Of a stretch of 64,000 nucleotides of DNA, positions 2,659 to 46,660 are shown piece by piece; position 1 is the stretch's first letter, and the number at the start of each line of letters is the position of its first letter. Below the pieces are notes generated by a model, which was given only the letters and a program-made list of their open reading frames with translations, had not been told where the DNA came from and ran no database searches. The DNA is taken from NCBI RefSeq assembly GCF_000250635.1, contig NC_016940.1:1032995-1096994 (forward strand). The letters run 5' to 3'. A program made the position numbers and the translations under genes. This DNA comes from Saprospira grandis str. Lewin. Its GTDB lineage: Bacteria > Bacteroidota > Bacteroidia > Chitinophagales > Saprospiraceae.

Positions 2659-2708
2659 CATGAGTAAGCAAAAGCTTTTTTAATTAAAAAAACATATCCC
2701 CCCCTCCT

Positions 2709-3248: not shown

Positions 3249-3262
3249 CTCCCCCCCCTCCT

Positions 3263-3799: not shown

Positions 3800-3820
3800 A
3801 AAAACATATCCCTCCCTCCT

Positions 3821-4360
3821 ATGAAAAAATTACTCTTTTTAACACTAGCCCTTATCGGCCTTAGCCTCTCTTCCTGCCAAAAGGAAGAGGACCTTTCTCC
3901 CGCCGCCCCCTGTACTGACTGTATCGAAATTAGCAGTGTTCAATTACTTTACTATACGCATCTGGCCCCCTATTCTTACTATGGCCCTAGAGATTACTGG
4001 GATAGATATGCGACTAACCCAGAAGACCGCGCCCCCGATCTTTATGTAGCAATAACGGAGGTAGTCGAACGCGGCTATGACGCAACTACCCTTTGTAGCT
4101 CTCCTCCCATACAAAACTGCCCCTCTCTTCCAGGTTTACCAATGGATCTTCCCAAAGTGTATATCGATAATGATAGCGAATATGAGTACGCCATCTCTGT
4201 GATAGATGAGGATGTAAGTGAAGGAGAACATTACAACCGAGGTATGGCCCACTTTTATATTACAGCTACTGAGCTCAAGCGGACAAAGCCAGACTCCCTT
4301 ATTTTGGAAAGCCCTCAATACAATAATGCAGCCCTTCTCCTACTACTAAAATACCACTAA
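3821..4360 (+). CDS. small lipoprotein, paralog 4
   Basis: Signal peptide identical to gene 3. The first ~17 mature residues are identical to gene 2, so the family is mosaic. Confidence 0.7.
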   Translation: MKKLLFLTLALIGLSLSSCQKEEDLSPAAPCTDCIEISSVQLLYYTHLAPYSYYGPRDYWDRYATNPEDRAPDLYVAITEVVERGYDATTLCSSPPIQNCPSLPGLPMDLPKVYIDNDSEYEYAISVIDEDVSEGEHYNRGMAHFYITATELKRTKPDSLILESPQYNNAALLLLLKYH

Positions 4361-8830: not shown

Positions 8831-10102
8831 ATGCCACAGCTTATCCGCTTTCTTATTTTGCTTTGTTTTCCCTTTATTCTTTTTGCTCAGCAGCCCTTGC
8901 GTTTGGTCGATCAACAGCTAGAACAACTGGTCCCTTTAGCCAATGGAGACTGGGGCTGGAGACCATTTTTAGAACTACCAACTACTTTAAAAACAGTAAC
9001 GGGCCAGGGGGAAGACATTTGGGCCATTAGTTTGGCCAATGAACTATTGCACTATAATAGAAGTCGAGATTACTGGGAAAACCTAGGCCAAATTGAAGGC
9101 CTTCCGGCCCTCATTCAAAGGAGTTTCCTCTATAAGGGGCAGCTGTATTTTCAATCTGGGGCCCTACTCTACCGTCTAGAGCTAGAAACTGAGGCCCAGC
9201 CAACTGTAGTCAAAAGAGGACTACCACTGCTGCTATCCAACTGGAGCTATCTGCCCAATCAGGGCCGTTTTTGGGCCATGCAATCTAGTGGGGCGCCCAT
9301 CTTTTTTGAGCCAGAGAGTGGTGTGATTGAACGGCCCAAAAAAACCTGGTTTAGGAATTTTGCTCGGGGGCAAAGCCAGGCCGAGGGACAACTTTGGCCC
9401 ATAGATGCAGAGCATTTTTTATACTTTAGTGTAGGGGCCCAAGAGCTCTACCTCCTCAATATGGCCAATTATGAAGCCTATAAATTGGGGCCCGTTCAGG
9501 GCATACAACCCAAGGCCGAAGTCCTTAGTCTCAATGGCCCTAAGCTTAAAAGCTTTCTTCCGCCAACGGCCAGCCGTTTGTATTGGGGTAAAGGCCTGCG
9601 AGGAGGCCGAATTAGCTGGTGGCAGCACCCTAGTCCAAAAATTGACCACTTTGAGCTAGAACGTAAGGAGGGAAGCAACAGCTCCTGGCTGATTGTCGGC
9701 AGCCTTAACGCCTATAATCCCCCCCATCAGGCAGGCTTTCATGCCCTAGATGATAGTCGAAAAAGGGGGAAATCAACGAGCTACCGCCTACTAGCGGTTA
9801 ATCCCTGGGGGCATAAGCGCTATTTACAAGAAATTTGCTTGGGCCCAGCCTGCCCTAAGGTCCAATTAGGTCCCAATATTTTATCGGCCCAAGAAGATTT
9901 ACGGCTCTATTTATCGGCCTTAAAGGGAGAATGGCTGAAAATAAAATGGAAAAGGGGCGGTAAAGTCGTTCAAAGCCAAGAAATCTATCTGGATTTACCC
10001 ACATATCAATTAACTTTGCCCGGACAGGCAGCGGGTCATTATGAGCTGTCTATTGAAAATGCCGACAACTGCCAGCGATTTCAGTTGTTTTATGGTTTTT
10101 AG
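8831..10102 (+). CDS. secreted hypothetical protein
   Basis: Signal peptide MPQLIRFLILLCFPFILFAQQ; 423 aa; no family recognised. Confidence 0.55.
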   Translation: MPQLIRFLILLCFPFILFAQQPLRLVDQQLEQLVPLANGDWGWRPFLELPTTLKTVTGQGEDIWAISLANELLHYNRSRDYWENLGQIEGLPALIQRSFLYKGQLYFQSGALLYRLELETEAQPTVVKRGLPLLLSNWSYLPNQGRFWAMQSSGAPIFFEPESGVIERPKKTWFRNFARGQSQAEGQLWPIDAEHFLYFSVGAQELYLLNMANYEAYKLGPVQGIQPKAEVLSLNGPKLKSFLPPTASRLYWGKGLRGGRISWWQHPSPKIDHFELERKEGSNSSWLIVGSLNAYNPPHQAGFHALDDSRKRGKSTSYRLLAVNPWGHKRYLQEICLGPACPKVQLGPNILSAQEDLRLYLSALKGEWLKIKWKRGGKVVQSQEIYLDLPTYQLTLPGQAAGHYELSIENADNCQRFQLFYGF

Positions 10103-10120
10103 CGAACAAAATCGAGATTA

Positions 10121-11401
10121 TTGGAGACGCAGCAAGCAAAAGCCCCTCTTATTTGGGCCTTAGCGGCTAGTTTGGGCAGTGGATTACTGCTGGCCTTTAG
10201 CCTTTCGACATATAGTATTGTATTGACGGCTTTCTTTGCCTTTATTCCTTTGCTTTGGCTTAGTAGAAGGCAGAGCTTTTGGCCTTTTGTAGGCTTTAGT
10301 ATCTTAAGCAACCTACTTGCCTATGGCCTCTTGGCCCCTCAGGCCATAGAGACGGTAAGCCTGCCTATGGGGCTGTTTTCTTGGGCCTTTGTCAGTCTGT
10401 TGTTTAGTATTCCCTGGGCTATGCTTTGGCTGATTCATCATCGGCACAATGCCAAATTGGGCTATTGGGCTTTTGTGAGTAGCTATTTGGCGCTGGAGTG
10501 GATGCAAGGGCAGTTTAGTGGACATTGGGCCGGTTGGCAGCTAGGAAGCTTGCCCCTGCTTTTTGGAAATAGTTGGCAGGCCTTAACGCTTGTGGGTACC
10601 GGGGGCGCTAGTTTATGGATCCTCAGCCTGAATATTCAGTGGTTCCGCTTTCTCTTTCCAGCCCAAGCCAAAAGTAGAAAAGGCGCTATTTGGGCCGGCA
10701 TTCCTTTGGTCCTCCTTCCCTTTATCCTCAGTTTGTTGATGGGGGCAGTACAAAAGGGAGATTCGGGCAGTTTTGTTTATCAGTCTAGCTACAAAAGCCA
10801 AAAAGGCCGCTTGCTGCTAGGCCAAGCCCCCAAAGAAGAGATTCCAGAAAATGCCCTTTATGCCCAAGAAAAGCCTTTAAATGATTGGGCCTATTTGGCC
10901 GGGCAAGATAGTTTGGGTAGCCTTCGGTTTTGGCAAAAAGGAGAGCGGCAGCCACTGAGTAGCCAAGCCTTTTCTGTTCGGACCATTTTGGGGGTAGAGC
11001 AGCGCTTTTTTCAGTTTATCGATTGGCAGGGCTCTCGCCTACTCCTGCTCAATGCCCATAGCCTAAAACGTACGGCCCCTATCCGAGAGGGCCTGCAAAA
11101 AGGAGCACAAACCGTTATTGCCTTTAGTCCAGACAGCAGTTTATCGCCGATTTTATACCGCTCGGCTAGGGCCCGTGCCCAAGAGAGTGGCAGTGATATT
11201 ATTTTGGTCCAAAAAAAGAAAGCTCATCATTTTTCGGCAAATGGCGACTACCAAGCCCTAGAAGATGGCCAAACCTGCAGCCCTAAAATATGGAGCCCTA
11301 CATTTTTTGCCCAATATGGCGATTTGCCTGGGCGATTGTCTATCTTTTTGGCGGCCTGGTTGGCTCTAGCCAGCATTGTCAAACCCTTCCGTAAAAAATA
11401 A
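10121..11401 (+). CDS. polytopic membrane protein, Lnt-like (apolipoprotein N-acyltransferase-like) with a divergent C-terminal domain
   Basis: About 6 N-terminal TM helices followed by a ~200-aa soluble domain. Weak similarity to the Lnt C-terminus (YRSARARAQESGSDIILV), but the catalytic E-K-C residues are not evident. Confidence 0.3.
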   Translation: METQQAKAPLIWALAASLGSGLLLAFSLSTYSIVLTAFFAFIPLLWLSRRQSFWPFVGFSILSNLLAYGLLAPQAIETVSLPMGLFSWAFVSLLFSIPWAMLWLIHHRHNAKLGYWAFVSSYLALEWMQGQFSGHWAGWQLGSLPLLFGNSWQALTLVGTGGASLWILSLNIQWFRFLFPAQAKSRKGAIWAGIPLVLLPFILSLLMGAVQKGDSGSFVYQSSYKSQKGRLLLGQAPKEEIPENALYAQEKPLNDWAYLAGQDSLGSLRFWQKGERQPLSSQAFSVRTILGVEQRFFQFIDWQGSRLLLLNAHSLKRTAPIREGLQKGAQTVIAFSPDSSLSPILYRSARARAQESGSDIILVQKKKAHHFSANGDYQALEDGQTCSPKIWSPTFFAQYGDLPGRLSIFLAAWLALASIVKPFRKK

Positions 11402-11409
11402 TTTAGCTC

Positions 11410-12144
11410 ATGAGTATGAAAAATGAAGATATAGAACTCGAACAGGAGGTCCTTCAAGCAGAATATATGCAGGCTCAGCAACCTGCGCTTTTGGTCCTTT
11501 TGGCCCAGGCTCTTTCAGTGGTCTTCCACCCTTTTCTGATTTTGCTCTACGCCTTTGTCCTTTTGGCCTATTGCAATCCCTTTTTGTTTCGGGTGAGTAG
11601 CTTTGCCGCCGTTTTCGAGAATAAGGTCAATAGTATGCTCTTTATTTGGCTGGCCATTTTCTCTTTTGCGGTCCCTCTGCTCACGGTCCTCATGATGCGA
11701 GCCCTCAATTTTGTCTCTTCTCTACAGATGCCTGGCCGCATGGAACGCATTGGGCCCTATATCGTGGTGGGCCTTTTATATATGGTCATTTTTGTCAATT
11801 TTAAAAATAATCCCGGCGTCCCTCTAGAACTAACGGCCTTTGCCCTAGGCAGTACCATTGCGCTGTTCATCTCTTTTTTCTTCAATCTATTTAGCAAAAT
11901 TAGTGTGCATACTACGGGCATGGGCGGCCTAGTGGCCATGACCCTACTTGCCGTGAGCAGAAGCTATGATGGCCAGGGCTACTTGTTAGTTTGGGTGGTT
12001 TTACTGGCTGGTCTGGTGGGTACGGCCCGTCTGCTCCTCGGCGCCCATAAAACCAAGGAGGTTTATGGCGGCTATGCCTCTGGCTTTATGGGCCAAATGA
12101 TCGCCTTTAATTATTTGTTTGCCACTGCTGCCGAACAGATGTAG
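11410..12144 (+). CDS. PAP2-family membrane phosphatase-like protein
   Basis: Multi-TM protein. SVHTTG resembles the PSGH motif; TARLLLGAHKTKE fits the RX5HX3[DE] PAP2 motif 3. Confidence 0.4.
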   Translation: MSMKNEDIELEQEVLQAEYMQAQQPALLVLLAQALSVVFHPFLILLYAFVLLAYCNPFLFRVSSFAAVFENKVNSMLFIWLAIFSFAVPLLTVLMMRALNFVSSLQMPGRMERIGPYIVVGLLYMVIFVNFKNNPGVPLELTAFALGSTIALFISFFFNLFSKISVHTTGMGGLVAMTLLAVSRSYDGQGYLLVWVVLLAGLVGTARLLLGAHKTKEVYGGYASGFMGQMIAFNYLFATAAEQM

Positions 12145-12300: not shown

Positions 12301-12384
12301 CGCCCTAAACAAGCTGTACTTTTGGACCAACAAAAAGCCCCCGCAGTCTCTGACTGCGGGGGCTTCCTTTTTGCCTCGGCTAAT

Positions 12385-13959
12385 TTACCAAAGGCTCCAC
12401 CATTGCTCCTCATCCTTTTGCTGAGGATCTACAGGGGTTAAGCTTTCTGCCAAACCAGAGCTGCCAAAATCTACGGCATTTGCTTCTATTGTGGCTTGTT
12501 GTTTTTGGGCCTCATAAGCATATTTTTTGCGGCTAGGATTGGCAAAATAGGCCTTCCAGGCTTGCTTGTTTTCTTCCTTGGCCAAAATGCGATCTACTTG
12601 CTCACAGAGCGCTTGGCCCTTCTCGGCCTGTACCATACGAACATAGTTCGCAAAGCCCTTAATGCTGGCCAAAATAAATCCTTGGCCCCATTCTGCGGCT
12701 TGATAACCTTTAGTTTCTATGGTATGCAAACAAGCTCTAAATTTCTTCAATGTTTTGCGGTCTACAGCCACTTGCTCATTTACCGTAAGGCCCGTTACCT
12801 CTTGGCGGCGGCCCTTGCGCATAATTTTGAGCTTTTTGGGGTGAATCACAAAGCCTTCATCTTGAATAATCTGCTGGGCCTGCCAAATGATACGGCTAAT
12901 ATTGCTCGTATCATTAGCCGAAAAACTCAGGTCATCGGCATAGCGGCTATAGGTCCAACCTAACTTTTTGGCTACCCCCTCAAAACGGCGGTCCATGCGG
13001 CGGCAAAGCCAGTTGGTAATCGCTGGACTAGTAGGTGCGCCCTGTGGCAAATAGCGCTCTCCCTTTTGGGCATAATACAACTGCCCGTCAATTTCTACTT
13101 GGTCCACCTCTGGTTCTGTCGTCAATAAGGCAAAGATAATGGACTGCTGCTCAGAATAGCCCAAGCCCTTAAACATCCCCTTCACTCGAGGATAGGTTAC
13201 GGTAGGAAAAAAGTCTTTGAGGTCCATATTGATGACCAGCTCTTTTTTCTCATGCAGTTTAGCATTACTCACAATAGAGCGCTCTGGCACAAAGCCATGA
13301 GCCGCTTCATGCATCTCTAAGCGAGCAAGTACATTCTCTAAGAGCCAGTATTGGGCATTTTTAAGCATAGGACGAGGGGCCGAAATCAGGCGTTTTCCTC
13401 CTGTTTTCTTGGCCAAATAAAAGCGCTCATAATGCGATACCGTAGAGAGCTTCCGCTGAAAACAAAGATAGCGCAAACGGCCTACAGAAATATCCATAGC
13501 CTCTGCCAGCTCTTTAATATCTTTAAATGCAGGCAGATTTAAAGCCGCTAATTTTGCTAGGTCAGCTTCTTCTTCACTCAAGCCAGCAGAATAGTCTTTA
13601 CCTAAAAAGACAATACTCCGTTCTTTCTTTTCTTGCCAAGCCTTAGCGCGGGCTTCTTTCTCTGCCTTACGGCGCTCCTTGGTCTCCTCTCGGCGAGCCA
13701 AGGCATCCGCCATGCGTTTTTTACGCATTTCGGCCAGCATACGCTCCTTATCTCGGAACATGCGTTGCTTCTCCATCAGCTCACGCAGCTCTCTTCGGAG
13801 AGCGCCCTTCTTTTGGATAAGCTCCTCAGAGATTTTTGGAGCCTCTTCAGTGGTATCCCAAAAGCCGAGGCGTTTCATTTCTTCTAAGATATATTCCTCT
13901 TTAGAAGTTTGGCGGATACGGTCATAAATCTGTTGGCGGGTCATTCGATGATCAGACAT
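12385..13959 (-). CDS. retron-type reverse transcriptase with an N-terminal charged coiled-coil extension of about 170 aa
   Basis: QGAPTSP (RT motif 4), YADDL (motif 5), the retron-specific NAKLH (NAxxH) and EVTGLTVN (VTG) motifs, plus the RT N-terminal KKTGGKRLISAPRPMLKNAQ. Start is placed at MSDHRM. The alternative upstream ATG at 14049 would put a 15-bp hairpin and the a2 repeat inside the ORF. Confidence 0.8.
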   Translation of the reverse strand: MSDHRMTRQQIYDRIRQTSKEEYILEEMKRLGFWDTTEEAPKISEELIQKKGALRRELRELMEKQRMFRDKERMLAEMRKKRMADALARREETKERRKAEKEARAKAWQEKKERSIVFLGKDYSAGLSEEEADLAKLAALNLPAFKDIKELAEAMDISVGRLRYLCFQRKLSTVSHYERFYLAKKTGGKRLISAPRPMLKNAQYWLLENVLARLEMHEAAHGFVPERSIVSNAKLHEKKELVINMDLKDFFPTVTYPRVKGMFKGLGYSEQQSIIFALLTTEPEVDQVEIDGQLYYAQKGERYLPQGAPTSPAITNWLCRRMDRRFEGVAKKLGWTYSRYADDLSFSANDTSNISRIIWQAQQIIQDEGFVIHPKKLKIMRKGRRQEVTGLTVNEQVAVDRKTLKKFRACLHTIETKGYQAAEWGQGFILASIKGFANYVRMVQAEKGQALCEQVDRILAKEENKQAWKAYFANPSRKKYAYEAQKQQATIEANAVDFGSSGLAESLTPVDPQQKDEEQWWSLW

Positions 13960-14051
13960 AGGGAGCAGATTGAGACAAAAAAAAACTACTTTCAATTTGG
14001 GAGAGCTAAGGCCGAAGCCTAGCTGGTCCAAAATTGAAAGTAGCTGCAAAA

Positions 14052-14309
14052 GAAAAAAAGAAGGAGAGAAGATTTACTTCGTACAATCTTAGAACTAAGA
14101 GAATCAACTCCAGCGAACCGTGGTAGGTGCCCCTACTTGTTCCCCTACAGAGTCTACGACTCGAAACCGCGTAGGGGAACAAGTAGGGGCACCTACCACG
14201 GTTCGCATCATAAAGATTCTTCCTTAGTGAACAGTGAAGAGTAATATCGCTTGAACGCCGAAACAGCGCTCTTTTTGCAAGACTTTGTCTTCTCTTGATC
14301 CTTCTTTTC
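14052..14309 (-). ncRNA. candidate retron msr-msd non-coding RNA
   Basis: Perfect 35-bp inverted repeat 14114..14148 / 14171..14205 around a 22-nt loop gives an msd-like long stem. It is flanked by imperfect inverted repeats at 14287..14309 (gtcttctcttgatccttcttttc, a1-like) and 14052..14074 (gaaaaaaagaaggagagaagatt, a2-like). It lies immediately 5' of the RT on the same strand. Confidence 0.5.
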
Positions 14310-14352: not shown

Positions 14353-14381
14353 AATGATAGATATTCTTTAGCAGCTTGTCA
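14353..14381 (-). promoter_or_regulatory. putative sigma70-like promoter for the msr-msd-RT transcript
   Basis: The minus strand reads TTGACA-17 nt-TATCAT within an AT-rich tract about 40 nt upstream of the a1 repeat. Confidence 0.3.
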
Positions 14382-14447
14382 AGTTTTTATTTAAATTTTT
14401 TCAAAAAATTATCAAAATAGTGAAGCTTTGGTCCTTTTTACGGTAAA

Positions 14448-14586
14448 CAGGCGGCGAAGCCGCCGCAGGCCTAGCGATGTGTAAGGGGGCGGCGAAGCCG
14501 CAGACCAAGGCCATCAGGCCGCAGGGCCGAGCGAATAGCGAGCCCTGAAACGTAGCGCCTGCCGAAGGCAGGAGGCCCCAAAAAAA
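14448..14586. repeat. GC-rich REP-like element
   Basis: Contains ggcggcgaagccgccgcagg, gggccgagcgaatagcgagccc and gaggccccaaaaaaa. Confidence 0.75.
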
Positions 14587-14589
14587 TCG

Positions 14590-16257
14590 CTAGATCAGTT
14601 TTCCAGTTTTGCGATTGTGAGCCATACGGGTGGCTAGAATATGTTCGCAGGGGCCTTTGCGCAATTTATTCATCTGAAAATGATTGCAATTGCATTCGGC
14701 TTGAACCATGCGGTCATCGGCATCGATGAGGAGTTGGCATTGGTAATTGCGCTGTTGTCCTTTGATCTGTGCCGATAGTCGAGTTTGGCCATTTTGCTGC
14801 GACTCTGCCGATAAATTGCTGAGGCGGTTTTGGTCCAAAATCTTGTTGGCTTTTTCTTCTTGTGGCGAGGCAAAGCGGAGCAACTTCATATCGAGTGGTT
14901 CGCGATGCAATTCCCGCAGGCGATACACGCCCAAGGTAGGATCAAAAATCACTCGGCCCGCTTGGGTGTAAGCTTGCAAGGAAGCGCTGACGATATCTCT
15001 GCCTAACTCTAGGCGTTCTGCTAGGCTATCTACCGACTCGAAATAAGTGCTTTTGAGGGCATCAAAAACGGTTTGTTTGGTCCAATCATCTACCTCTAAG
15101 CGAGGGGCGAGCAAATCAAAGTTACCAGCTCTGGACCAATCGTTATCGGTCCAGCCAGAAAGGCCCAAAGTAAAGACCATATCTCCCTCTAGTTGGGCCT
15201 CATAGAAAGAAGGCAAACCAGAACCGAGGAAGCTGACTGTAAATTTTTTGGCTTGTGGAATCAGGCGCTCTAAAATGAGTAAGCGGCGGCGGCCCCAAAT
15301 GCGGACCTCCTCTGCTTTTGGCCCATGATAAATAGAGCGGCGGCAGATAATTTCTTTATTCCAAGGTTCTACCACCACCTTAACGGGCTGCCCAGGGCGA
15401 AGTTGAAAGCGCAAAGAGCGGGGGCCATGTGTTTCCTTAAAGCGGCGCAAAAGCTGGCAGATGCTATGAATATCCATGGGATGCAGGTCAAAGCGAATGA
15501 GCGGCATCGTCATGGCAGAGCTCACTTGAAGGAAGCCGCGGACCCAGCTTTCGGGTAGGTCAATTTTGACCTCCTTATATAAATCTTGGTCCTCCGTTTG
15601 GATTTCGAAGCCAGAAGGATCTACCCGAAAATCGGTTTCCTTATAATTCCGAATCTTTTGAAACTCATTATAAAGGGCTGCGGAGTAATCAATATTGGTT
15701 GTTCCGCAAGAAAACTCATCAATATTCTTAAAGACATTATAGCCACAGCTGAGCTTACCATAGGTAGATTCATCTTGGCTAAAGCACTCAAAGAAAATGC
15801 TATCGGGATGAGTAGTGATAACGGGATCCAGGACGATCCAGGCATCAAAATCCTTTTTATAGAGGTAATTAAAATACTCTCTTTGTTTTTTGTAGAAATG
15901 CTGCATTACGCCTCGTTCCTGCTCTTCTACCCCAGCCAATTCTACCGAAATATCTTCGATACGTTGTTTAATATTGGCCTCATCTCCAGCAATTTCGCCA
16001 AGGTATTGGGCCAGCCAGACCTCTTCCTGCTCCTTGGCCCAGGCCAAATAGGCAGATTTATCACGAGGTTTGAAGCGAAGATCAGAAACCACTACGGCAT
16101 TCAAGGCAGAGATGGCTTCTCTAAAGGCAATTTTCTTATGCAATTGGCCCACAAAAAAAGTAGGCTCGCGCAAACTATCGGGGGCAAAGGACATGGCCGT
16201 TTGCCCAGCTTTATTCTTCACAGAGGAAGTTCCTCCATACTTATAATTAAATAACAT
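14590..16257 (-). CDS. SWIM zinc-finger family protein
   Basis: C-terminal CxC-x11-CxH signature AECNCNHFQMNKLRKGPCEHILA; 555 aa. Confidence 0.65.
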   Translation of the reverse strand: MLFNYKYGGTSSVKNKAGQTAMSFAPDSLREPTFFVGQLHKKIAFREAISALNAVVVSDLRFKPRDKSAYLAWAKEQEEVWLAQYLGEIAGDEANIKQRIEDISVELAGVEEQERGVMQHFYKKQREYFNYLYKKDFDAWIVLDPVITTHPDSIFFECFSQDESTYGKLSCGYNVFKNIDEFSCGTTNIDYSAALYNEFQKIRNYKETDFRVDPSGFEIQTEDQDLYKEVKIDLPESWVRGFLQVSSAMTMPLIRFDLHPMDIHSICQLLRRFKETHGPRSLRFQLRPGQPVKVVVEPWNKEIICRRSIYHGPKAEEVRIWGRRRLLILERLIPQAKKFTVSFLGSGLPSFYEAQLEGDMVFTLGLSGWTDNDWSRAGNFDLLAPRLEVDDWTKQTVFDALKSTYFESVDSLAERLELGRDIVSASLQAYTQAGRVIFDPTLGVYRLRELHREPLDMKLLRFASPQEEKANKILDQNRLSNLSAESQQNGQTRLSAQIKGQQRNYQCQLLIDADDRMVQAECNCNHFQMNKLRKGPCEHILATRMAHNRKTGKLI

Positions 16258-16268
16258 ATTGAGCTAGA

Positions 16269-19200
16269 CTAAGATTGAGTGGGATAATCATGAATCGCAA
16301 TAGGCTGTTCGAGCAAGGGGTATTGGTCCTGCAAATCACGTAGTACAATAACGGCCTGCTCCTTATCGCCAATCGCTGCAGTGGCCGAGATAAAAGTGGC
16401 TAAATCAGAGAGGAATTGCGCTACTTCAAAAGAAGCTTTGGCCTCTTTGGTCAAAAAGCTCCAGATGCGATCCTTGGCCATTCGGCCCTTGTTCACTTGG
16501 GCCAAAACGGTATAAAAATAATCGCGTAGCGATAGAATCCGCTCGGGATGTCCAGCCCCAAAGCGCTCCAAATAATTAGTTGCATACAGTTGTAGTTCTG
16601 GACGGGGGTGCTGACTCAATTGCTCCAAGTACATGGGGCCATCCTCTTCCTCAAAGAAGCGAGTAATGAGTTGGCGACCAAACTGCTGTACATCTTGGCG
16701 AACCGAATCGCAGATGCCCACCATCAAACTAGGGTTCCAATCATCAGCGGTATAGCTTTGGCCAAAGAAATCAAAGGCAAATTGTCGAGAATCGGCCCAA
16801 TCTACATCTAGTAGACGCAAAGCCTCTTCTCTTTCGTAGCGCATACGATCTTTTTGTTCCTTAAACATTTTCCAAGCGAGCTCGCGAACGGCCACAATTT
16901 CATGATTGGCCAGACGAACCGTATTGGCCACCGACAAAGAGTCATAAGGGATATAGCGATCAATTAAGACGGCAGCCAACTCTTGTGCGGGAGCATATTT
17001 TGCATTGAGCAGGCGGAAAATAAACTTCCGGTCTACCTCCGCCAAATGGCCCTCTAGTTCGCTAGTTAAGATATCGGCAAAGAGCGCGTGCAAGCCCTCA
17101 ATTTTTTCTTTGCGGATCAGTTTACGCAAGAGCGCTTGCATTTGCGTCACCGCAAAAGCTTGGTTTTGGGCATAGAGTGGGGCCAAAACTTCACGGCTGG
17201 CCAAGCGCACATCCTCTTCAGGATGCTCTAAAAGGCCCAGAAGGAAGTCGCCTTCCTGCAAGAGCTTTTGCTCTGAAGAGTGACGGAGAAGTTCTAAGCC
17301 ATAGCGCCAATAATCGGCTGTTTTGCCAAAGAGGTATTGAATATCTTCAAAGGGAATTTGTGTAGCTTCTGCCGCATGCCCTTTAAGCAAATGCAAACCA
17401 AAGGCTTGTTGCTGAGCCAAAGGCAGGCGTAAAAACTTCCCGATTAAATCTAGGCTGAGTTGTTGGGTTTCCTCGACAAAGTAGCTCTTCAGTAAGGACT
17501 CTACCTCTGTCATTAGCATCTGTTGATCTTGGCCCGAGCGGAGCAAGAAGCCCAGCAAACGGCCCAAGAGTGCTTGACGCTTGGCGGCTTCATAAACCTC
17601 CACGATACGTCCTAAGGCCTCTTGTGCCCAATTTCTCAAATCTTTGCGTTGGTGCAATAAAAGGCTATAGACCAAATCTAGATCGGCAAAGTAGTCAAAG
17701 AAATCAGCTTCTAGCCAAGCCAAAGCCTGCTCTCTAGCCTTTGCATAATCATGGTCCAAAAGGTAAAGCAGGATAGCCGTAGGCTTGCCTGATTTTTCAT
17801 AATTGGCCACAATTTCTTGCAGGGCCCAAGTTTGTAGTGGCTGATATGGACGGCTCAGTAGCTGCTTCCAGTAAGACAAGCCCAGTCGCTTTTGCAAGCT
17901 CTTGGCCTCGGGATGGGCCATAAATGCCGTATGGGCAAACTCTAGGACCTTTTGGCTTTTGGCCTCGGCCATTAGGTGCAAAAAGGCCTTGGGCTCCTGC
18001 CGCCAAAGGTCGGCATATTTAGTTTCTGAAAGGGGGGCTGGCAAGGGCATATCTGGATCGTAATGCTTACCATAAACCCATTCTTGTTTCATGGGAGAAT
18101 ATACATATCGCTGACTATTCGCATAAAGAACCTCGTTAAAGATCAGCTCCTTAGAGTAGCTAGGATAATGATATACGCTGGCGATCCAGCGCTGTTTCTT
18201 ATTATCAAATCGCCAGTTCTTTTCTCGGCGATCTGTGCGGCCATCTCGGCTATCATCATATTGAAGGAGGAGACTTGTGGCCATAGCGACATAAGCGATA
18301 TTTCCCTTTTGTCCCAATTGGTCCAACTCTTTACGCATATAATCGCTAAAGTAGTCCTTGGTCAAATTGGAGAAGGCTAGACGGCTATTTTCTTTTTTCA
18401 ACTCATCTTTGGGCCGCATACGGTTATAGCTAACCCAAACATATTGATTATTTCGGCGGGGCATTCTATACTGTGGGCTCGCTTTTTCAAAGCGGTAGGC
18501 CAAGGCCCCCCAAAACTGTGCATCCTTGCGAAAGGTCGCCATTTTGAAGAGGCGACGCAGCAAACGGAAGCTATTGGGTCGGAACTCCATTTCGCAAATG
18601 ACCTCTACTAATGTCTTGCGACAATAAGGCATAGCAGGAGACAATAAATAAAGCATAGCAAATGCTTGCTCCATACTTTTATCTCCTTTGGCCTTGCGTA
18701 GCTGATAGGCCAAAGCATCATTATCTTTACGGTCCAAGGCCTTTTGCCAGAGTTCAGGGAGTTTGGGCAGCTCCTCTTCGAGCAAAGCCTGTTGCCCAGC
18801 GGCATCGGCTAGTTCCCAATAGACAAAGGGCGCTAGTTTTTTAGCCGTAGGCGCTTTTTTCTTGCTTCGCCAAAAAGTTAATAAGTTGCTGGGGTCCTCT
18901 ACTGCGGTATCGAGTTGAGCCGTAGCCCAAAGTAGGCTATAGAGCTCCATATCGTCTATAGATTTGCCTCTATGGTTTTGCTCAAAAAGGGCCCAGCAAT
19001 AGGGTCCAGCCGCTTTGATGTTAAGACTAGCGGCACGCCAAGCGACCCTAGACAGCTTCCAGTTGCGGGCCTTTTGGGCCGCTGGATCTAGTTGAGCGAG
19101 CTGTAAATGGTATAGGATCCAGGCCGCCTGAGCTTCTGCTCCTTCTAGGGATTTATCTGGGGGCTGAATAGCCGCCACTTGCTTGGCCTGGCTCTTTTCA

Positions 19201-19445
19201 GATACATCCAAATAGCCCTTTTTCATTTTATCCTGTAGCAATTTATTGTACAGACTGCGGGCCTTGGTTTCATCTACAGGCGTGGGCGTTTTGCTGCCCT
19301 CTCTTAAGGGGCCGCCCGTTTTCCCATAACGGAAATTAACTAGAAAGGCCCCTGCTTCCAATTCGCAAAGGTCTACTTCATATACTTTATCAGAATTGCC
19401 CTGCTTAAAATGCAGGCGCTTTTGTTCTATTAGCTTCATCGGCAA
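16269..19445 (-). CDS. large alpha-helical protein with an N-terminal WGR-like domain (MolR/DUF4132-type partner of SWIM proteins)
   Basis: N-terminus KRLHFKQGNSDKVYEVDL..VNFRYGKTGG....LYNKLLQDKMKKGYLD fits the WGR domain pattern. 1058 aa, mostly helical. Only 11 nt separate it from the SWIM gene. Confidence 0.5.
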   Translation of the reverse strand: MPMKLIEQKRLHFKQGNSDKVYEVDLCELEAGAFLVNFRYGKTGGPLREGSKTPTPVDETKARSLYNKLLQDKMKKGYLDVSEKSQAKQVAAIQPPDKSLEGAEAQAAWILYHLQLAQLDPAAQKARNWKLSRVAWRAASLNIKAAGPYCWALFEQNHRGKSIDDMELYSLLWATAQLDTAVEDPSNLLTFWRSKKKAPTAKKLAPFVYWELADAAGQQALLEEELPKLPELWQKALDRKDNDALAYQLRKAKGDKSMEQAFAMLYLLSPAMPYCRKTLVEVICEMEFRPNSFRLLRRLFKMATFRKDAQFWGALAYRFEKASPQYRMPRRNNQYVWVSYNRMRPKDELKKENSRLAFSNLTKDYFSDYMRKELDQLGQKGNIAYVAMATSLLLQYDDSRDGRTDRREKNWRFDNKKQRWIASVYHYPSYSKELIFNEVLYANSQRYVYSPMKQEWVYGKHYDPDMPLPAPLSETKYADLWRQEPKAFLHLMAEAKSQKVLEFAHTAFMAHPEAKSLQKRLGLSYWKQLLSRPYQPLQTWALQEIVANYEKSGKPTAILLYLLDHDYAKAREQALAWLEADFFDYFADLDLVYSLLLHQRKDLRNWAQEALGRIVEVYEAAKRQALLGRLLGFLLRSGQDQQMLMTEVESLLKSYFVEETQQLSLDLIGKFLRLPLAQQQAFGLHLLKGHAAEATQIPFEDIQYLFGKTADYWRYGLELLRHSSEQKLLQEGDFLLGLLEHPEEDVRLASREVLAPLYAQNQAFAVTQMQALLRKLIRKEKIEGLHALFADILTSELEGHLAEVDRKFIFRLLNAKYAPAQELAAVLIDRYIPYDSLSVANTVRLANHEIVAVRELAWKMFKEQKDRMRYEREEALRLLDVDWADSRQFAFDFFGQSYTADDWNPSLMVGICDSVRQDVQQFGRQLITRFFEEEDGPMYLEQLSQHPRPELQLYATNYLERFGAGHPERILSLRDYFYTVLAQVNKGRMAKDRIWSFLTKEAKASFEVAQFLSDLATFISATAAIGDKEQAVIVLRDLQDQYPLLEQPIAIHDYPTQS

Positions 19446-19699: not shown

Positions 19700-20034
19700 C
19701 TCCGGGGATTCCCCAGAGCTGTTTGTAAGCTGCAGCAGCGCCCTAGACGGTTATTTCTCTCTAAAAAAACCGCCAACAGCACCCCTGAGGGATTCCTTAG
19801 GGAATCCCGAGGAGGGGCGGGTGGGCGGGGTCGTGAAAACGAATGAGGAGCGCAGCGACGAATACCGCTTTTCTGCGAAGGCCCGCAGGGCCGCTGAGGG
19901 CCCAGCGCTGCGGAGCGGGTGGCCGAAGGCCAGACCGAAGCAGGCGAAGCCTGCGCAGGGCCGAGCGAGCAGCGAGCCCCGCAGCATAGCGGCGGCCGCC
20001 CGCCCTTTTTGGGGCGGCCGCGGGCCCCAAAAAC
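19700..20034. repeat. GC-rich REP-like element (composite) including the gggattccttagggaatccc palindrome variant
   Basis: Shares cores with the other copies. The same palindrome variant occurs at 56930..56990. Confidence 0.75.
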
Positions 20035-20137: not shown

Positions 20138-21370
20138 ATGCGCCAACTTATTTCATGGGCCTTTATTCTGGCCCTACCGGCTTGTCTTTGGAGCCAAGAC
20201 CTTGGTCAAGAACTGCAAAAACTAGAAGCTCAAAAGCAAAGCCTAGACGAACAAAAAGCCGCCCTTATTGAGCAAATTGAAAACGTCCGCCTACAAAAGA
20301 TTCGAGCTGATTTGAAAAAAGTGGGCTTGCCAAAAAATGGCGTAGCAGGGGAACTGGTAGAGCATGCCGCCATGATTCTGAACTATTCGGAGGCCCATGA
20401 ACAGGCCGCTTGGGTGGCCCATATTATTCCGCCCGCCGTGATGGAAGGCAACCTGAGCCGAACCAATGATTTTAGAGCAGATGAGCTAGTCAGTACAGGA
20501 ACGGCGGTAAAAGCCGACTACTGGTATAGTGGTTACGACCGTGGGCATTTGGCCCCTTCTGCGGATTTCCGCTGGTCCAAAACAGCCATTAGTGAGTCCT
20601 ATTATTACTCTAACATGAGCCCCCAATTGCCCGAATTTAACCGAGAGGGCTGGGCCGATTTGGAGCGATGGGTCCGAGGAGCCGTCTTTTCTCACAAACG
20701 CTCTATGTTGGTCATTACTGGCCCTATTTTGAAAGAGGGCTTGCCCCAAATTACCCAAGGCCCCAATAAAGTAAGCATTCCCGAAGCCTTTTTCAAGGTG
20801 GTTCTGGACCTAGAGGCCGAGCAGCCCAAGGCTATCGGTTTTATCATGAAAAATGGCAGCTGCAACAACCCCACAATCAGCTATGCCGTCTCGGTAGATG
20901 AGGTGGAGGCCCAAACGGGCTTGGATTTCTTTAGCAATTTGCCCGAAGAGGAAGAAAAACGCCTAGAAGCCATGAAGGCCCCTTCTAGCTGGGAGAAAAC
21001 GACGGAAGGTCGCTTGGCCGATGTTCCTCCCCTCAGCAATGAGGAATTGCCCAAGGATTGTATCAGCACCGCCGATGCCCCCGTCTTTATGAACCAAAAA
21101 GCCTGCGTTTGCGGCACAGTGGTATCCACCAAGAAAACCAAGTCGGGCTCTGTCTTTATCAATCTGGACACAAAATTTCCCAACCAGATTTTTTCCGTAA
21201 CCATCTGGGGCAAGGACATCAAGCATTTTTCTTATTCGCCAGAGACGGAACTCTATGGCAAGCAGATTTGTGTAAAGGGGAAAATTACAGATTACAAAGG
21301 GACCCCGACCATGAATATCACTCATGAAAAGAAGGTGGAATTTATGGAGGAGATGCCAGATAAGAAGTAG
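20138..21370 (+). CDS. nucA: secreted DNA/RNA non-specific endonuclease (Serratia NucA/EndoG family) with a C-terminal extension of about 120 aa
   Basis: Signal peptide MRQLISWAFILALPACLWSQ. The GYDRGHLAP DRGH catalytic motif is present, with NxS...N downstream. Confidence 0.75.
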   Translation: MRQLISWAFILALPACLWSQDLGQELQKLEAQKQSLDEQKAALIEQIENVRLQKIRADLKKVGLPKNGVAGELVEHAAMILNYSEAHEQAAWVAHIIPPAVMEGNLSRTNDFRADELVSTGTAVKADYWYSGYDRGHLAPSADFRWSKTAISESYYYSNMSPQLPEFNREGWADLERWVRGAVFSHKRSMLVITGPILKEGLPQITQGPNKVSIPEAFFKVVLDLEAEQPKAIGFIMKNGSCNNPTISYAVSVDEVEAQTGLDFFSNLPEEEEKRLEAMKAPSSWEKTTEGRLADVPPLSNEELPKDCISTADAPVFMNQKACVCGTVVSTKKTKSGSVFINLDTKFPNQIFSVTIWGKDIKHFSYSPETELYGKQICVKGKITDYKGTPTMNITHEKKVEFMEEMPDKK

Positions 21371-21372
21371 GA

Positions 21373-21535
21373 TTTGGGGCTGCCCCTCGCCTATCGGCTC
21401 GGGTCGGGCCATTGCGCAGCTCGCTACTCGCTCGGCCCTGCAGGCTTTTTCGCTACGCTTCAAAAGCCTTTGGTCTGCCGCCTTCGGCGGCCCTGCTACA
21501 GCCCCTCAGCCTGCGGCCCTTCGGGCCTGTCCCAT
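21373..21535. repeat. GC-rich REP-like element
   Basis: tttggggctgcccc...gggtcgggccattgcgcagctcgc...ggtctgccgccttcggcggccctgctacagcccctcagcc. Confidence 0.8.
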
Positions 21536-21555
21536 CCAAAAAATCAATCCATCGC

Positions 21556-22362
21556 ATGAATTACCAAGAACAATTTGCGGCCAATAAGGCCGTTTGGGAG
21601 CAAAGAGCGGCTTTGCATCCAGAAACTGAGTTTTATCAGCAAGATGCTTTTATGCAAGGGCAAACGAGTCTGCAGTCTATAGAGCTCTCCTTATTGGAGG
21701 CCAACTTATCGGGCAAAAGAGTCTTGCATCTGCAATGTCATTTTGGGCAAGATAGTCTATCTTTGGCCCGCATGGGCGCAGAAGTCGTGGGCCTAGACCT
21801 CTCCGAAACCGCCATTGCCAAGGCCCAAAGCCTAGCCGAAGCGCTCAATCTCAATGCCCATTTTTACCAAGGCAATGTACTAGACGCTCAAGAGATTTTG
21901 GCCCAAGAAGCCCCCTTTGATCTCATCTTTTGTTCTTATGGGGTCGTTTATTGGCTGCCCGATCTGCTGCAATGGGGCCAAGAAATAGGGCCCTTACTCA
22001 AAAGAGGCGGAGAATTTATGCTGGTCGAGTTTCACCCTATCGTCTGGATGTTTGATGACAACTTTAGCTACATCCAATATAGCTACTTTGACCAAGGCGC
22101 TATTGAAACCGAAGAAGAGGGCAGCTATGCCAAGCGAGAAGCCGAGATCTCAGGAAAATCTTATGGCTGGAACCACAGCCTTTCCGAAATGACCGCCGCC
22201 TTAACCGAAGGAGCAGGCTGGCAGCTCAGTTACCTCAAAGAATATAAGTTTTCGCCTTACAATTGCTTTAATAATACTGTAGCTCATCCCGAAGGCTACC
22301 AAATCAAGGGCCTAGAGGATAAAATCCCTATGGTGTTTGCTTTGGGGGCCCAACGGCCCTAG
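21556..22362 (+). CDS. class I SAM-dependent methyltransferase
   Basis: GKRVLHLQCHFGQDS...VVGLDLSETAI fits motif I / post I. Start moved to MNYQEQ because the upstream 48 codons of ORF 21412.. lie inside the REP element. Confidence 0.6.
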   Translation: MNYQEQFAANKAVWEQRAALHPETEFYQQDAFMQGQTSLQSIELSLLEANLSGKRVLHLQCHFGQDSLSLARMGAEVVGLDLSETAIAKAQSLAEALNLNAHFYQGNVLDAQEILAQEAPFDLIFCSYGVVYWLPDLLQWGQEIGPLLKRGGEFMLVEFHPIVWMFDDNFSYIQYSYFDQGAIETEEEGSYAKREAEISGKSYGWNHSLSEMTAALTEGAGWQLSYLKEYKFSPYNCFNNTVAHPEGYQIKGLEDKIPMVFALGAQRP

Positions 22363-24555: not shown

Positions 24556-24707
24556 CAGGCGGCAAAGCCGCCGCAGGCTGAGCTGCCTGTAGGGGGGCCG
24601 AAGGCCAGACCAAGTTTTTGAGCGCAGCGAAAAAACGCAGGGCCGAGCAGAACTGCGAGCCCGAAAGGGAGCGACCCGAGCGAAGCGAAGGGGCAGCCCC
24701 AAAAAAA
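24556..24707. repeat. GC-rich REP-like element
   Basis: Contains ggcggcaaagccgccgcagg and gggccgagcagaactgcgagccc, ending gggcagccccaaaaaaa. Confidence 0.75.
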
Positions 24708-26160: not shown

Positions 26161-26410
26161 AGAAAAAGCTCAGTTTTAAGTGTTTTCTCACCAACCATTA
26201 GAGCCTAGCCTCCGTTCTTAAACAAAATGGCCCCTTGGGGCCCTCTTCTTGATTCTATTAAAAAAGAACGTTATAGCGCAAACTCTACCACTTAATGAGA
26301 AGGCCTCTAAAATAGGGCAAAAAATCATTCTCAGTCCCCCCTAAGATGACCAAAAGCTGCAATTCTTGCATCTTGGTCAAAAAATCACCTTGCCAAAAGC
26401 AATTTATTGC

Positions 26411-26971
26411 ATGAGATATTCTAACAAAAGTACAGATAAAGAGCTCATCCAAGGCTGCCGCAAAGGCGACCGATTGGCCCAAAAGCATTTGTACGAAAAG
26501 TACTACGGACGAATGTATGGCATTGCTATGCGTTATACCAAAAACCAAGAGGAGGCGCTAGATATTCTTAACACCTCCTTTCTCAAGGTGTTTACCTCTT
26601 TGGACAAGTACAAAGACAGCAACAACCTTGCGGGTTGGATTGCCAAGATTGTCTTTAATAGTGCTATCGACCACGTTCGCCGAAATACCAAATACAAACA
26701 AGTCATTAACTATAATATAGAGAGAGATGGGGCCGTGCATAACGGCAGCTTGCAACAACTGCAGGCCGAGGACCTCTTCCGCTTGATTCATCGGCTCCCC
26801 AATGCTAGCCGTAGCGTCTTCAACCTCTATGTAGTAGATGGCTATAAGCACAAGGAAATTGCGGAAATGCTCGGCATTTCGGTAGGGACCTCCAAATGGC
26901 ATTTGGCCAATGCGCGCAAAGAACTTCGGAGCTTGCTCGAACAACAAAAGCGCTATGAAGCCGCCCGCTAA
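26411..26971 (+). CDS. RNA polymerase ECF-type sigma-70 factor
   Basis: Region 2 (YGIAMRYTKNQEEALDILNTSFLKVF) and region 4 (YKHKEIAEMLGISVGTSKWHLANARKELR); about 186 aa from the MRYSNK start. Confidence 0.7.
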   Translation: MRYSNKSTDKELIQGCRKGDRLAQKHLYEKYYGRMYGIAMRYTKNQEEALDILNTSFLKVFTSLDKYKDSNNLAGWIAKIVFNSAIDHVRRNTKYKQVINYNIERDGAVHNGSLQQLQAEDLFRLIHRLPNASRSVFNLYVVDGYKHKEIAEMLGISVGTSKWHLANARKELRSLLEQQKRYEAAR

Positions 26972-27029: not shown

Positions 27030-28370
27030 ATGAAGCAGTTTTACGAACAAGATGATGATTTTATCCGCTCTCAGTTAGAAGGCCATCAGTTTGAGATGCC
27101 GCCTGCTGCTTGGGAAGATATGGACAAAAGGCTCGACCAAATCCAGCTAACGGGAGCCAAGGGCAGTTCTGCCTGGAGCAACTGGTTGGTGATGGGCGCT
27201 TTTGTGCTCGCTAGTGGAGCTGGCGTTTTGGCCTATCAATATTGTCTGCCCTTTTTAGGGATGCAAAAAAAGATGGCCCAAAAAGAAGCCCTCTTAGAAA
27301 AAGCAGCCGAGCCCCAGCTCATTCAACTGGAAGAGCGAGCAGCTATAGCTAGCGCAGAGACAGAAGAAGTACTGCCTTTGGCAAGGGCCAGCAATACGCC
27401 TCCTCCTCCCCCACCCCATAAAACAACTAAAGAAAAAGTAGTGGCGAGTCCAGCCCCCAAGGCCCAAGAAGTTGTTCTTCTAGAAGAAGAGCAAAACACT
27501 ACAGAAAAGGGCCAGAATAAGCATCCTGAGGTCAAACAAACGATTTTGCCCACTCGCTATGTTTTCTCGGCTAGTAGTAAAGCCAAAGCCGAGCAGCTGC
27601 GTGAGATTCAGCGTTTAGAAAACTTGTCTTTTTTAGAAAAGGGCAGTTTCCAGCAGCAGTTGCGCCATAGCCAAAAAACGACTATTGATACGCCAATGAT
27701 TGTTTTGGACCGTTATCGCAAGGGCGGCAAAAAGCTACAGCTATCGGCTAGTTTGGGCCTCAATGCGCAGGGCAAAGCCCTAGGCGTTCAGGCAGGTATA
27801 CAGCTAAGCAAAGAGCTAGATGCTCAGTTTTCACTAGAAGCGGGTTTGCAGTATAAGAATATGCAGCGGCTAGGCAGCCAAAGTGAAACGGCTAGATTGG
27901 AATGGAATGGCGAGCTTCAAGAGGAGCAAATTCAGGCCATTAAGCGTTTAGAATTTTTGGAGCTGCCCGTTTTGCTCAACTACAAACTGTGGCCCAAGCA
28001 TCAGTTGCAGATGGGGGCAAAAGTTAGCTACCTCTTGCCCGTACAGATGACCAATGGCCAGCGTACTGCAGATGATTTGGGCTTTAATAGTTGGTCTTCT
28101 GCGGCTGTTTTGGGCTATCATTACCAGCTTAACGAGCAATTAAAACTGGGGGTACAATGCAATTTGGCCTTTGCCAATTTGGCCAAAAACAGCCGACAAA
28201 AAGCGCATCAGGCCAGCCAAGAAGTATCGGCCCAATTGCTAGAAGAGGACAAGCTTCCGCAGGATGAATGTCTGTTGCCAGAGCAAAATGGCAATGAGCT
28301 AGAATTGAGCAGATTGCCTCATAAGTTATACAATAACGACCTATCTATTCAGCTACAATATCAGTTTTAG
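27030..28370 (+). CDS. putative anti-sigma factor-like membrane protein
   Basis: Lies immediately downstream of the ECF sigma. Has an AWEDMDKRLDQ motif, a single TM segment (WLVMGAFVLASGAGVLAY) and a long periplasmic C-terminal domain. Confidence 0.45.
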   Translation: MKQFYEQDDDFIRSQLEGHQFEMPPAAWEDMDKRLDQIQLTGAKGSSAWSNWLVMGAFVLASGAGVLAYQYCLPFLGMQKKMAQKEALLEKAAEPQLIQLEERAAIASAETEEVLPLARASNTPPPPPPHKTTKEKVVASPAPKAQEVVLLEEEQNTTEKGQNKHPEVKQTILPTRYVFSASSKAKAEQLREIQRLENLSFLEKGSFQQQLRHSQKTTIDTPMIVLDRYRKGGKKLQLSASLGLNAQGKALGVQAGIQLSKELDAQFSLEAGLQYKNMQRLGSQSETARLEWNGELQEEQIQAIKRLEFLELPVLLNYKLWPKHQLQMGAKVSYLLPVQMTNGQRTADDLGFNSWSSAAVLGYHYQLNEQLKLGVQCNLAFANLAKNSRQKAHQASQEVSAQLLEEDKLPQDECLLPEQNGNELELSRLPHKLYNNDLSIQLQYQF

Positions 28371-43735: not shown

Positions 43736-43822
43736 GAGGCGGCGAAGCCGCCGCAGGGCCGAGCAGACCTGCGAGCTGCGCAATGGCCCGACCCGAGCGA
43801 AGCGAGTGGGCAGCCCCAATAA
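43736..43822. repeat. GC-rich REP-like element (single unit)
   Basis: Contains ggcggcgaagccgccgcagggccgagcagacctgcgagctgcgcaatggcccgacccgagcgaagcg, ending gggcagcccc. Confidence 0.75.
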
Positions 43823-46476: not shown

Positions 46477-46489
46477 GCTCTTAATGTAG

Positions 46490-46564: not shown

Positions 46565-46620
46565 ATCTTGAAGCGGTACAAATATAAAGCAGCTTTTTGG
46601 ATAATCCAAGTTTTGGCCAT

Positions 46621-46660
46621 AAAAAAAAGCGAGATACTCAATAGTATCTCGCTTTTGCTC
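46621..46660 (-). terminator. rho-independent terminator of tRNA-His copy 2
   Basis: Stem gcgagatact/agtatctcgc followed by a T run on the minus strand. Confidence 0.55.

Follow-up and report, generated by a model that had tools for sequence, protein, structure and literature searches.

The reverse transcriptase (RT) gene of a predicted retron in Saprospira grandis str. Lewin is preceded, on the same strand, by two closely spaced genes, one encoding a protein with a SWIM zinc finger and the other a far larger protein that begins with a WGR domain. The locus lies in the 64,000-nucleotide stretch of contig NC_016940.1 analysed here (positions 1,032,995 to 1,096,994), referred to below as the window, and all coordinates are those of the window unless a related locus is named. 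The question that it raises is whether the two genes belong to the retron and, if so, what their proteins might do alongside the RT. A first-pass annotation had left them either as retron-associated effector or accessory proteins or as a conflict system of their own, situated in a defence islet. They are almost certainly the type-defining accessory genes of a canonical type XIII retron. The explanation preferred as a whole, in which this accessory pair works with the RT and its multicopy single-stranded DNA (msDNA) as part of the assembly proposed below, is given a probability of roughly 0.6.

The genes concerned, and the non-coding RNA (ncRNA) that accompanies them, are the following.

16269..19439, minus strand: WGR and HEAT/ARM-repeat gene, 1056 residues from the ATG at 19439; PADLOC WGR_XIII; cluster 216_1 of Mestre et al.
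14590..16257, minus strand: SWIM gene, 555 residues, ATG start; PADLOC SWIM_XIII; cluster 114_1 of Mestre et al.
14053..14307, minus strand: predicted retron ncRNA (msr-msd), bounded by the inverted repeats a1 (14288-14307) and a2 (14053-14072), labelled I1 and I3
12385..13959, minus strand: retron RT gene, 524 residues from the ATG at 13959; PADLOC RT_XIII, Pfam RVT_1 and NCBIfam

Identity of the locus

Type XIII retrons were defined by Mestre et al. 2020 (PMC7736814) as a clade-10 RT together with two accessory proteins, and that study is the source of the PADLOC profiles. Proteins of its cluster 114_1 carry the motif D..D..E..D..E and a winged helix, and have a CxCx12CxH SWIM finger at the C-terminus; its cluster 216_1 comprises WGR-like proteins with HEAT/ARM repeats, encoded directly upstream of the SWIM gene. 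Members of the type include Retron-Mxa1/Mx162, Mxa2/Mx65, Nex2/Ne144 and Sau1/Sa163 (PMC7736814).

All three proteins of the S. grandis locus are matched over nearly their full length by the corresponding PADLOC profiles, which identifies it as a canonical type XIII retron. WGR_XIII matches the large protein with 1027 bits over residues 3-1056 and SWIM_XIII matches the SWIM protein with 770 bits over residues 1-550, while for the RT the best model is RT_XIII, with 624.6 bits; the next model reaches 310 bits. By this best profile score the RT probably belongs to clade 10. It is also matched by Pfam RVT_1 and by the NCBIfam retron RT models (E 1e-63 to 1e-65), carries a charged N-terminal extension, and contains the motifs SNAKLH, EVTGLTV and RYADDLSF, which are of the NAxxH, VTG and YADD types. 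Like the type XIII retrons of Mestre et al. 2020, the locus combines the same three proteins, including an N-terminally extended clade-10 RT, with a long msd hairpin ncRNA beside the RT; it differs in its host, which is a member of the Bacteroidota rather than a myxobacterium, and in that its msDNA is a prediction from the sequence. The nearest relatives of both accessory proteins come from the same species: the large protein is 98% identical to one from S. grandis, and the SWIM protein 99% identical to one from S. grandis DSM 2844.

The first-pass annotation had described the gene pair, an 11-nt gap between its members, their co-orientation with the retron and a distance of about 280 bp from it, and all of this is borne out by the sequence. 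The gap occupies 16258-16268, and approximately 282 bp separate the stop codon of the SWIM gene (14590) from the ncRNA's a1 repeat (14307). Along the minus strand the order is WGR-HEAT gene, SWIM gene, repetitive extragenic palindromic (REP)-like repeat, promoter-like site, msr-msd and RT gene. The large open reading frame (ORF) reaches a TTG at 19445 (16269..19445, 1058 residues), but its homologues begin MKLI..., and the true start is therefore most likely the ATG at 19439. The RT ORF similarly extends to a TTG at 14049 (12385-14049), leaving a spacer of 540 nt to the SWIM ORF; the conserved part begins at the ATG at 13959, which is the most likely start.

Linkage in related genomes

Relatives of the SWIM protein were sought in one genome per species. 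This gave 80 loci, of which the 55 with at least 6 kb of sequence on both sides were counted. An RT gene lies on the same strand as the SWIM gene in 50 of these, and a WGR protein gene in 53. Two gene orders recur, both with all genes on one strand: WGR-SWIM-RT, as in S. grandis, at 35 loci and RT-WGR-SWIM at 14. One locus has the SWIM and RT genes without a WGR protein, and one the SWIM gene alone. The loci come from Bacteroidota, Cyanobacteria, Myxococcales, Planctomycetes, Acidobacteria, Gammaproteobacteria and one metagenome-assembled genome (MAG) of Clostridia. Even a SWIM relative with 29% identity keeps the order large protein, SWIM protein, RVT_1. Variants with a short N-terminus are preceded by proteins of 615-1159 residues, one of which (1159 residues) has a weak HEAT_2 match and a faint Arm match.

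Linkage at 50 of 55 loci marks the pair as retron-associated rather than as an independent neighbour. The first-pass annotation had suggested looking for homologues of this RT beside SWIM and WGR genes, and such linkage is indeed found, in several phyla. The association that it raised as a possibility is upheld by these loci and by the end-to-end type XIII profiles, but it had already been published in 2020.

The loci with the pair and no nearby RT are L016 (2124-9709, Calothrix parasitica), which has two tandem WGR-HEAT paralogues, L025, L048 and L073. These loci may have lost their RT gene, or it may lie elsewhere.

The SWIM protein and its predicted clamp fold

The C-terminal CxC..CxH finger reported by the first-pass annotation can be read directly in the protein, and its Pfam match (residues 505-542, E 1.1e-5) scores 25.3 bits, above the cut-off of 19.6. 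The rest of the protein is divided as follows; the domains other than the finger are predictions.

15160..16224, minus strand: predicted PCNA-like two-domain clamp, residues ~12-366
15838-16056, minus strand: predicted coiled-coil hairpin insertion in the clamp, residues 68-140, poorly conserved
14917..15087, minus strand: predicted winged-helix domain, residues 391-447
14632..14745, minus strand: SWIM zinc finger C522-x-C524-x12-C537-x-H539, Pfam PF04434, with conserved Cys/His columns

The SWIM protein is the best conserved of the three. Between phyla, and at the same loci, its identity is 57-75%, that of the RT 44-61% and that of the WGR-HEAT protein 27-43%. A search of 1.84 billion cluster representatives with the SWIM protein returned 1189 relatives at E <= 0.001, and among the best 150 of these 1189 identity falls to about 29%. 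From this search an alignment of 75 sequences was built, with members down to 26% identity. An AlphaFold model made with this alignment has a mean predicted local distance difference test (pLDDT) score of 85.5 and a predicted template modelling (pTM) score of 0.83. In a Foldseek search of the PDB with the model, the top 50 matches are all PCNA; in a viral library, clamps and processivity factors lead and form the majority of the top 50, with unnamed proteins filling the remainder. The secondary-structure string of the model places clamp domains at residues ~12-212 and ~230-366, the winged helix at 391-447, and a beta-sheet with the SWIM finger at 479-550.

The pattern of conservation can be read on this fold. 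The four helices equivalent to the DNA-facing inner helices of a clamp hold invariant basic residues, namely R46; K201/R203; R240; and R323/R325/R331. Across the wide family of 75 sequences, invariance is restricted to P145, E157 and G185 in the clamp, G434 and R448 in the winged helix-turn-helix (wHTH) and C522 in the SWIM finger. The acidic motif reads D144-x7-D152-x4-E157-x32-D190-x38-E229, and at least 90% of the 75 sequences share D144, E157 and D162.

As an observation in its own right, the most conserved stretch of the SWIM family is residues 142-245 (15523-15834), which contains an acidic cluster of D144, D152, E157, D162/E163, D190 and E229/D233.

Taken together, the model suggests that the SWIM protein contains two tandem clamp-fold domains and is clamp-like rather than a nuclease. 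In the model it lacks an RNase H-like catalytic fold, of the DDE/DEDE or MULE/IS256-like kind, that would carry the acidic residues. To our knowledge, the sliding clamp fold has no catalytic members. Its resemblance to PCNA, the 9-1-1 complex, the beta clamp and the viral proteins UL42, UL44 and BMRF1 is one of predicted fold; unlike those proteins it has a fused coiled-coil insertion, a wHTH and a SWIM finger, as well as the conserved acidic cluster, it shows no sequence similarity to PCNA and the clamp family, and no clamp loader is encoded nearby. A different proposal was made by Mestre et al. 2020 (PMC7736814), who described the SWIM protein as 'DEDE' and transposase-derived; where that paper sees a transposase-like nuclease, the protein is here predicted to be a clamp, and the prediction, if correct, contradicts the published suggestion. 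A literature search returned no paper reporting a clamp fold in type XIII.

The C-terminal tail of the reverse transcriptase

The RT ends in a short aromatic peptide (...PQQKDEEQWWSLW).

12388..12402, minus strand: RT C-terminal pentapeptide WWSLW, read in translation, behind a variable low-complexity linker

This ending is widely shared. Among 55 related RTs with complete C-termini, 41 terminate in W-W-x-[IVL]-[FLVW]-COOH and two more in [RG]WKLW, and in every case the W-W motif is preceded by a hypervariable low-complexity linker. The motif occurs in Bacteroidota, Myxococcales, Planctomycetes, Acidobacteria, Gammaproteobacteria and one Clostridia MAG, while the RTs that lack it, about ten, are cyanobacterial. 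Many polymerases dock on clamps by a C-terminal hydrophobic peptide on a flexible tether; examples of clamp-binding tails include the bacterial QL[SD]LF motif, PIP boxes and the tail of UL30, which is bound by UL42. In position and hydrophobic pattern the W-W tail resembles such tails, and by this analogy it could dock on the clamp-like SWIM protein, on the HEAT/ARM solenoid or on the host beta clamp.

Two further observations concern the RTs without this ending. At five of the tail-less cyanobacterial loci (L022 14739-15416, L040 13130-13843, L042 14479-15252, L026 8322-9536 and L063 11211-11909) an extra gene lies directly upstream of the RT gene. By eye its product looks RNase III-like, with an N-terminal '...ALTHRSY...' and a C-terminal '...KKDAEKxAAExAL...' resembling a double-stranded RNA-binding domain. 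The type XIII RT of L066, a Gammaproteobacteria MAG, has a transmembrane-like hydrophobic end (...FSWLRFIITVFLVWLVLRLLARLL) in place of the WW peptide.

The WGR-HEAT protein

The first-pass annotation had assigned to the large protein a WGR-like start followed by helical repeats, and both parts of this description are confirmed.

19197..19415, minus strand: WGR domain, residues 11-83 in the numbering of the 1058-residue ORF; Pfam PF05406

The Pfam WGR match (E 2.5e-5) reaches 24.8 bits against a cut-off of 22, and the domain contains the motifs VYEVDL, NFRYGKTG and KKGY. In 40 relatives of the large protein the residues Y20, E21, D23, N35, F36, R37, G39, K71, G75 and Y76 do not vary; Pfam finds WGR in 39 of these relatives and HEAT_2 in 37. 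The remainder of the protein, about 950 residues, is of HEAT/ARM-repeat type, and the family profile matches the HEAT-like alphaRep repeats in the PDB (E 5e-16). A PDB sequence search returned no solved relative of the WGR-HEAT protein beyond generic HEAT repeats.

WGR domains bind DNA ends (at breaks in the PARPs), and HEAT/ARM repeats form peptide- and nucleic-acid-binding scaffolds. The domain here shares with the WGR domains of PARP1-3 and bacterial WGR proteins a Pfam match above the curated threshold and the motifs YE.DL, F.YG+ and KKGY. It differs in that the protein has no PARP catalytic domain and continues after the WGR domain with the long HEAT/ARM repeat region, and in its signature, which reads Y-G-K/R here and not W-G-R. 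By analogy, the domain is expected to bind nucleic-acid ends.

Comparison with the E. coli yeh genes

The first-pass annotation had likened the large protein to MolR/YehI-like proteins with DUF4132, and the SWIM protein to YehQ. The cluster in question, yehF/yehH/yehI (MolR, DUF4132) ... yehL-yehP-yehQ (MoxR, VWA, SWIM), does resemble the S. grandis locus in that a WGR-containing protein and a SWIM-finger protein are encoded in one gene cluster. It differs in having no RT or ncRNA; conversely, no MoxR AAA+ or VWA genes are found among the neighbours within ~8 kb of the S. grandis pair. yehF, yehI and yehQ were taken from E. coli MG1655 and their products compared with the two proteins by BLASTP and hhalign. 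Neither suggested likeness survives this comparison. DUF4132 or DUF6493 is present in none of the 40 relatives of the large protein, BLASTP and profile comparisons with YehI and YehF gave nothing, and hhalign gave a probability of 0.2% against YehI. For YehQ the likeness is confined to the zinc finger, with a best BLASTP E of 0.15 and an hhalign alignment of 33 finger columns at a probability of 4%. What the pair shares with the E. coli genes comes down to WGR and SWIM, both of them small, promiscuous domains. A megablast comparison of the 8.2-kb region with complete E. coli genomes likewise gave no match.

A proposed retron assembly

In the assembly proposed here, the RT would copy the msd region into msDNA with a long duplex stem, which in this locus would correspond to a perfect hairpin of 36 bp. 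The SWIM protein, with its clamp module, winged helix and SWIM finger, would grip this duplex stem by the four basic helices and by R448 of the wHTH. The RT's disordered C-terminal linker would keep the enzyme in the assembly through its terminal WWSLW, which may dock on the clamp-like protein or on the HEAT/ARM solenoid. The WGR domain would bind a DNA end or the msDNA branch and the HEAT solenoid would act as a scaffold, the functional unit being an RT-msDNA-clamp-HEAT particle. By analogy with other retrons, disturbance of the msDNA or of the complex would set off an output; the sole candidate active site for such an output would be the acidic cluster on the clamp domain. This clamp-based model is put forward tentatively, at somewhat less than an even chance of being right, and an anti-phage role for the system is evenly balanced. 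A stricter form of the model is doubtful, namely that the SWIM protein is a true sliding-clamp homologue working with the RT, that the RT is tethered by its WWx[IV][FL] tail to the SWIM protein or to the host beta clamp, that the clamp, wHTH and SWIM modules hold the msDNA duplex and that the WGR-HEAT protein reads the DNA end. If true, it would describe an RT-clamp machine without a conventional toxin, which could act by DNA transactions and not by abortive infection.

Several results weigh against the preferred explanation. Four of the 55 loci have the WGR-SWIM pair with no RT within 10 kb. An AlphaFold model built with only 26 close homologues of the SWIM protein reached a pLDDT of 60, with the conserved core below 50, and was discarded in favour of the deeper alignment. 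No member of the 75-sequence family has a Pfam match to PCNA, Rad9/Hus1/Rad1 or DNA_pol3_beta, even at E <= 1, and a PDB sequence search gave no solved structure related to the SWIM protein; the clamp assignment is therefore a structure prediction. The conserved acidic cluster on the clamp domain is not explained by a pure binding role. At the tail-less cyanobacterial loci, the conserved positions were compared for a compensating change, which gave no discriminating column in the SWIM protein and one in the WGR protein, so the tail shows no covariation with either partner. Finally, Pfam recognises no toxin domain in the three proteins or in the 75 SWIM and 40 WGR-HEAT relatives, and hence no output was identified. 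Since the searchable literature holds no experiment on type XIII, everything beyond the identity of the locus is inferred.

Alternative explanations

An alternative that we regard as unlikely is that the system has been domesticated for a role other than defence, with the RT-msDNA-clamp-HEAT particle acting in chromosomal repair, replication restart or recombination and being inherited vertically. The high identity of the SWIM protein across phyla, far above that of its operon partners, would fit such a role, as would the lack of a toxin domain. Clamp, WGR and SWIM modules are also, as a matter of general knowledge, typical of DNA repair machinery. Mestre et al. (PMC7736814) reported a correlation of 0.78 with 16S and themselves suggested vertical inheritance and domestication. 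The surroundings of the genes point the same way. Among 123 ORFs flanking 18 loci in different genera, only about 5-8 match defence models, and at E <= 1e-10 the matches are few: Wadjet (JetA/JetB) at one locus, NsnA, PD-T4-2 and RtcR once each, and some generic enzymes. The neighbours within ~8 kb in the window are likewise ordinary, consisting of a peptidase M20, three ORFs without a family match, an Endonuclease_NS protein, a methyltransferase, and LysM and LysE proteins; HemN is also among them. On the other hand, near-identical architecture spread across phyla fits horizontal transfer as well, both PADLOC and DefenseFinder list type XIII as a defence candidate, and, in the abstracts surveyed, every retron type tested so far is anti-phage.

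Slightly less probable again is an arrangement in the manner of a toxin and antitoxin, in which the SWIM protein would be a metal-dependent nuclease effector, with the D/E cluster as its active site, kept inactive by the RT and msDNA until phage infection. In the same abstracts, all retron types studied mechanistically sequester a toxic effector. Conservation in the SWIM family is highest at the acidic residues, and this unexplained cluster keeps the nuclease hypothesis alive. The region that holds them is nevertheless predicted to fold as a sliding clamp, a fold for which we know of no catalytic members, no Pfam nuclease family is found in any of the 75 members, and the neighbourhoods are not defence islands. 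Mestre et al. (PMC7736814), for their part, place type XIII among the nuclease-associated retrons.

That the WGR and SWIM genes form an independent two-gene conflict system, comparable to yehI...yehQ of E. coli and merely adjacent to the retron, can be set aside as largely refuted by synteny: the REP-like element and separate promoter-like site between the pair and the ncRNA and the four RT-less loci would favour it, but the RT is encoded on the same strand at 50 of 55 loci in two fixed orders, the profiles built from retron-linked proteins match over the full length, no similarity to YehI, YehF or YehQ extends past the SWIM finger and no MoxR or VWA gene lies nearby, and co-evolution of the RT with its accessory proteins has been shown by Mestre et al. 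(PMC7736814). The 'defence islet' of the first-pass annotation fares no better, given the tight RT linkage and the low defence enrichment in the window and at related loci.

The spacer and the non-coding RNA

With the type XIII accessory pair retained as the preferred explanation, the remaining elements of the operon are the following.

14449..14580, no strand assigned: GC-rich REP-like dispersed repeat, with direct repeats D1, between the SWIM stop codon and the retron promoter
14354..14382, minus strand: promoter-like site TTGACA-17-TATCAT, matching at 11/12 positions, top of 13 sites in the scanned region
12335..12365, no strand assigned: terminator-like GC-rich 14-bp hairpin, followed on the minus strand by TTTTTGTT (a T-run), past the RT stop codon

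A REP element and a promoter between the pair and the retron had also been noted at the first pass, and the repeat and the promoter-like site are located at these positions. The TTGACA-17-TATCAT match stands before the ncRNA, and the consensus that it follows may not apply to a host from the Bacteroidota. The REP-like unit, GGCGGCGAAGCCGCCGCAGGCC, is present in four copies in the window where none is expected. Similar GC-rich repeats stand upstream of the WGR gene (~19850-20030), and copies thus lie on both sides of the WGR-SWIM pair. The palindromic intergenic repeat as a whole was recorded at 14449-14580, 19850-20030, 24558-24579, 43738-43759 and 54034-54055. The terminator-like hairpin closes the retron operon and is common to it and the convergent gene.

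Within the ncRNA, the msd hairpin occupies 14113-14206 and has a perfect stem of 36 bp. The ncRNA region folds with -141 kcal/mol (z = -11.9). At 59 related loci, the best 140-nt folds upstream of the RT have a median energy of -60.9 kcal/mol, and a control taken inside the SWIM gene of the same loci gives -38.2 kcal/mol. Such strong hairpins would fit a conserved msd hairpin. In the predicted ncRNA the branching G was not located, and an Rfam scan found no family for this RNA. A match to mir-764 at 14113-14206, on both strands, scored 43 bits against a gathering threshold of 82 and was rejected as an artefact of the perfect msd hairpin.

Other genes in the window

Several further features of the window were recorded. 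Three consecutive ORFs at 8831-12144 on the plus strand (423, 426 and 244 residues), convergent with the RT gene, have no Pfam or PADLOC match. Divergent from the WGR gene, at 20138-22362 on the plus strand, are genes for an Endonuclease_NS (DNA/RNA non-specific) protein and an S-adenosylmethionine-dependent methyltransferase, the latter with a weak PADLOC mad2 match. Four tandem paralogous ORFs of 171-179 residues lie at 2143-4360 on the plus strand and have 33-44% identity to the first. Every one encodes a signal peptide along with a lipobox-like LSSCQ; no Pfam family matches any of them. A protein of 981 residues with TPR and CHAT (caspase-like) domains is encoded at 28611-31556 on the minus strand, beside an extracytoplasmic function (ECF) sigma factor (26366-26971) and a protein weakly resembling beta-barrel outer membrane proteins (27030-28370). 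Two tandem tRNA-His(GTG) genes, 107 nt apart, occupy 46489-46744 on the minus strand.

Significance for type XIII retrons

The pair itself is not new: the type XIII accessory genes have been known since 2020, and PADLOC detects them automatically. The setting in which it is found is nevertheless of interest. Mx162 was among the first retrons ever found, and the classic Myxococcus retrons are of type XIII. Few retron types are as widespread in environmental bacteria: in a 2026 metagenome survey, type XIII was the third most abundant retron group and had the broadest phylogenetic distribution across phyla. Nothing on its function, effector activity or structure was turned up by searches of the literature and the PDB; the type is common, historically important and mechanistically unexplored. 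To this family the present analysis adds two testable leads: the predicted clamp fold of the SWIM protein and the conserved tail of the RT.

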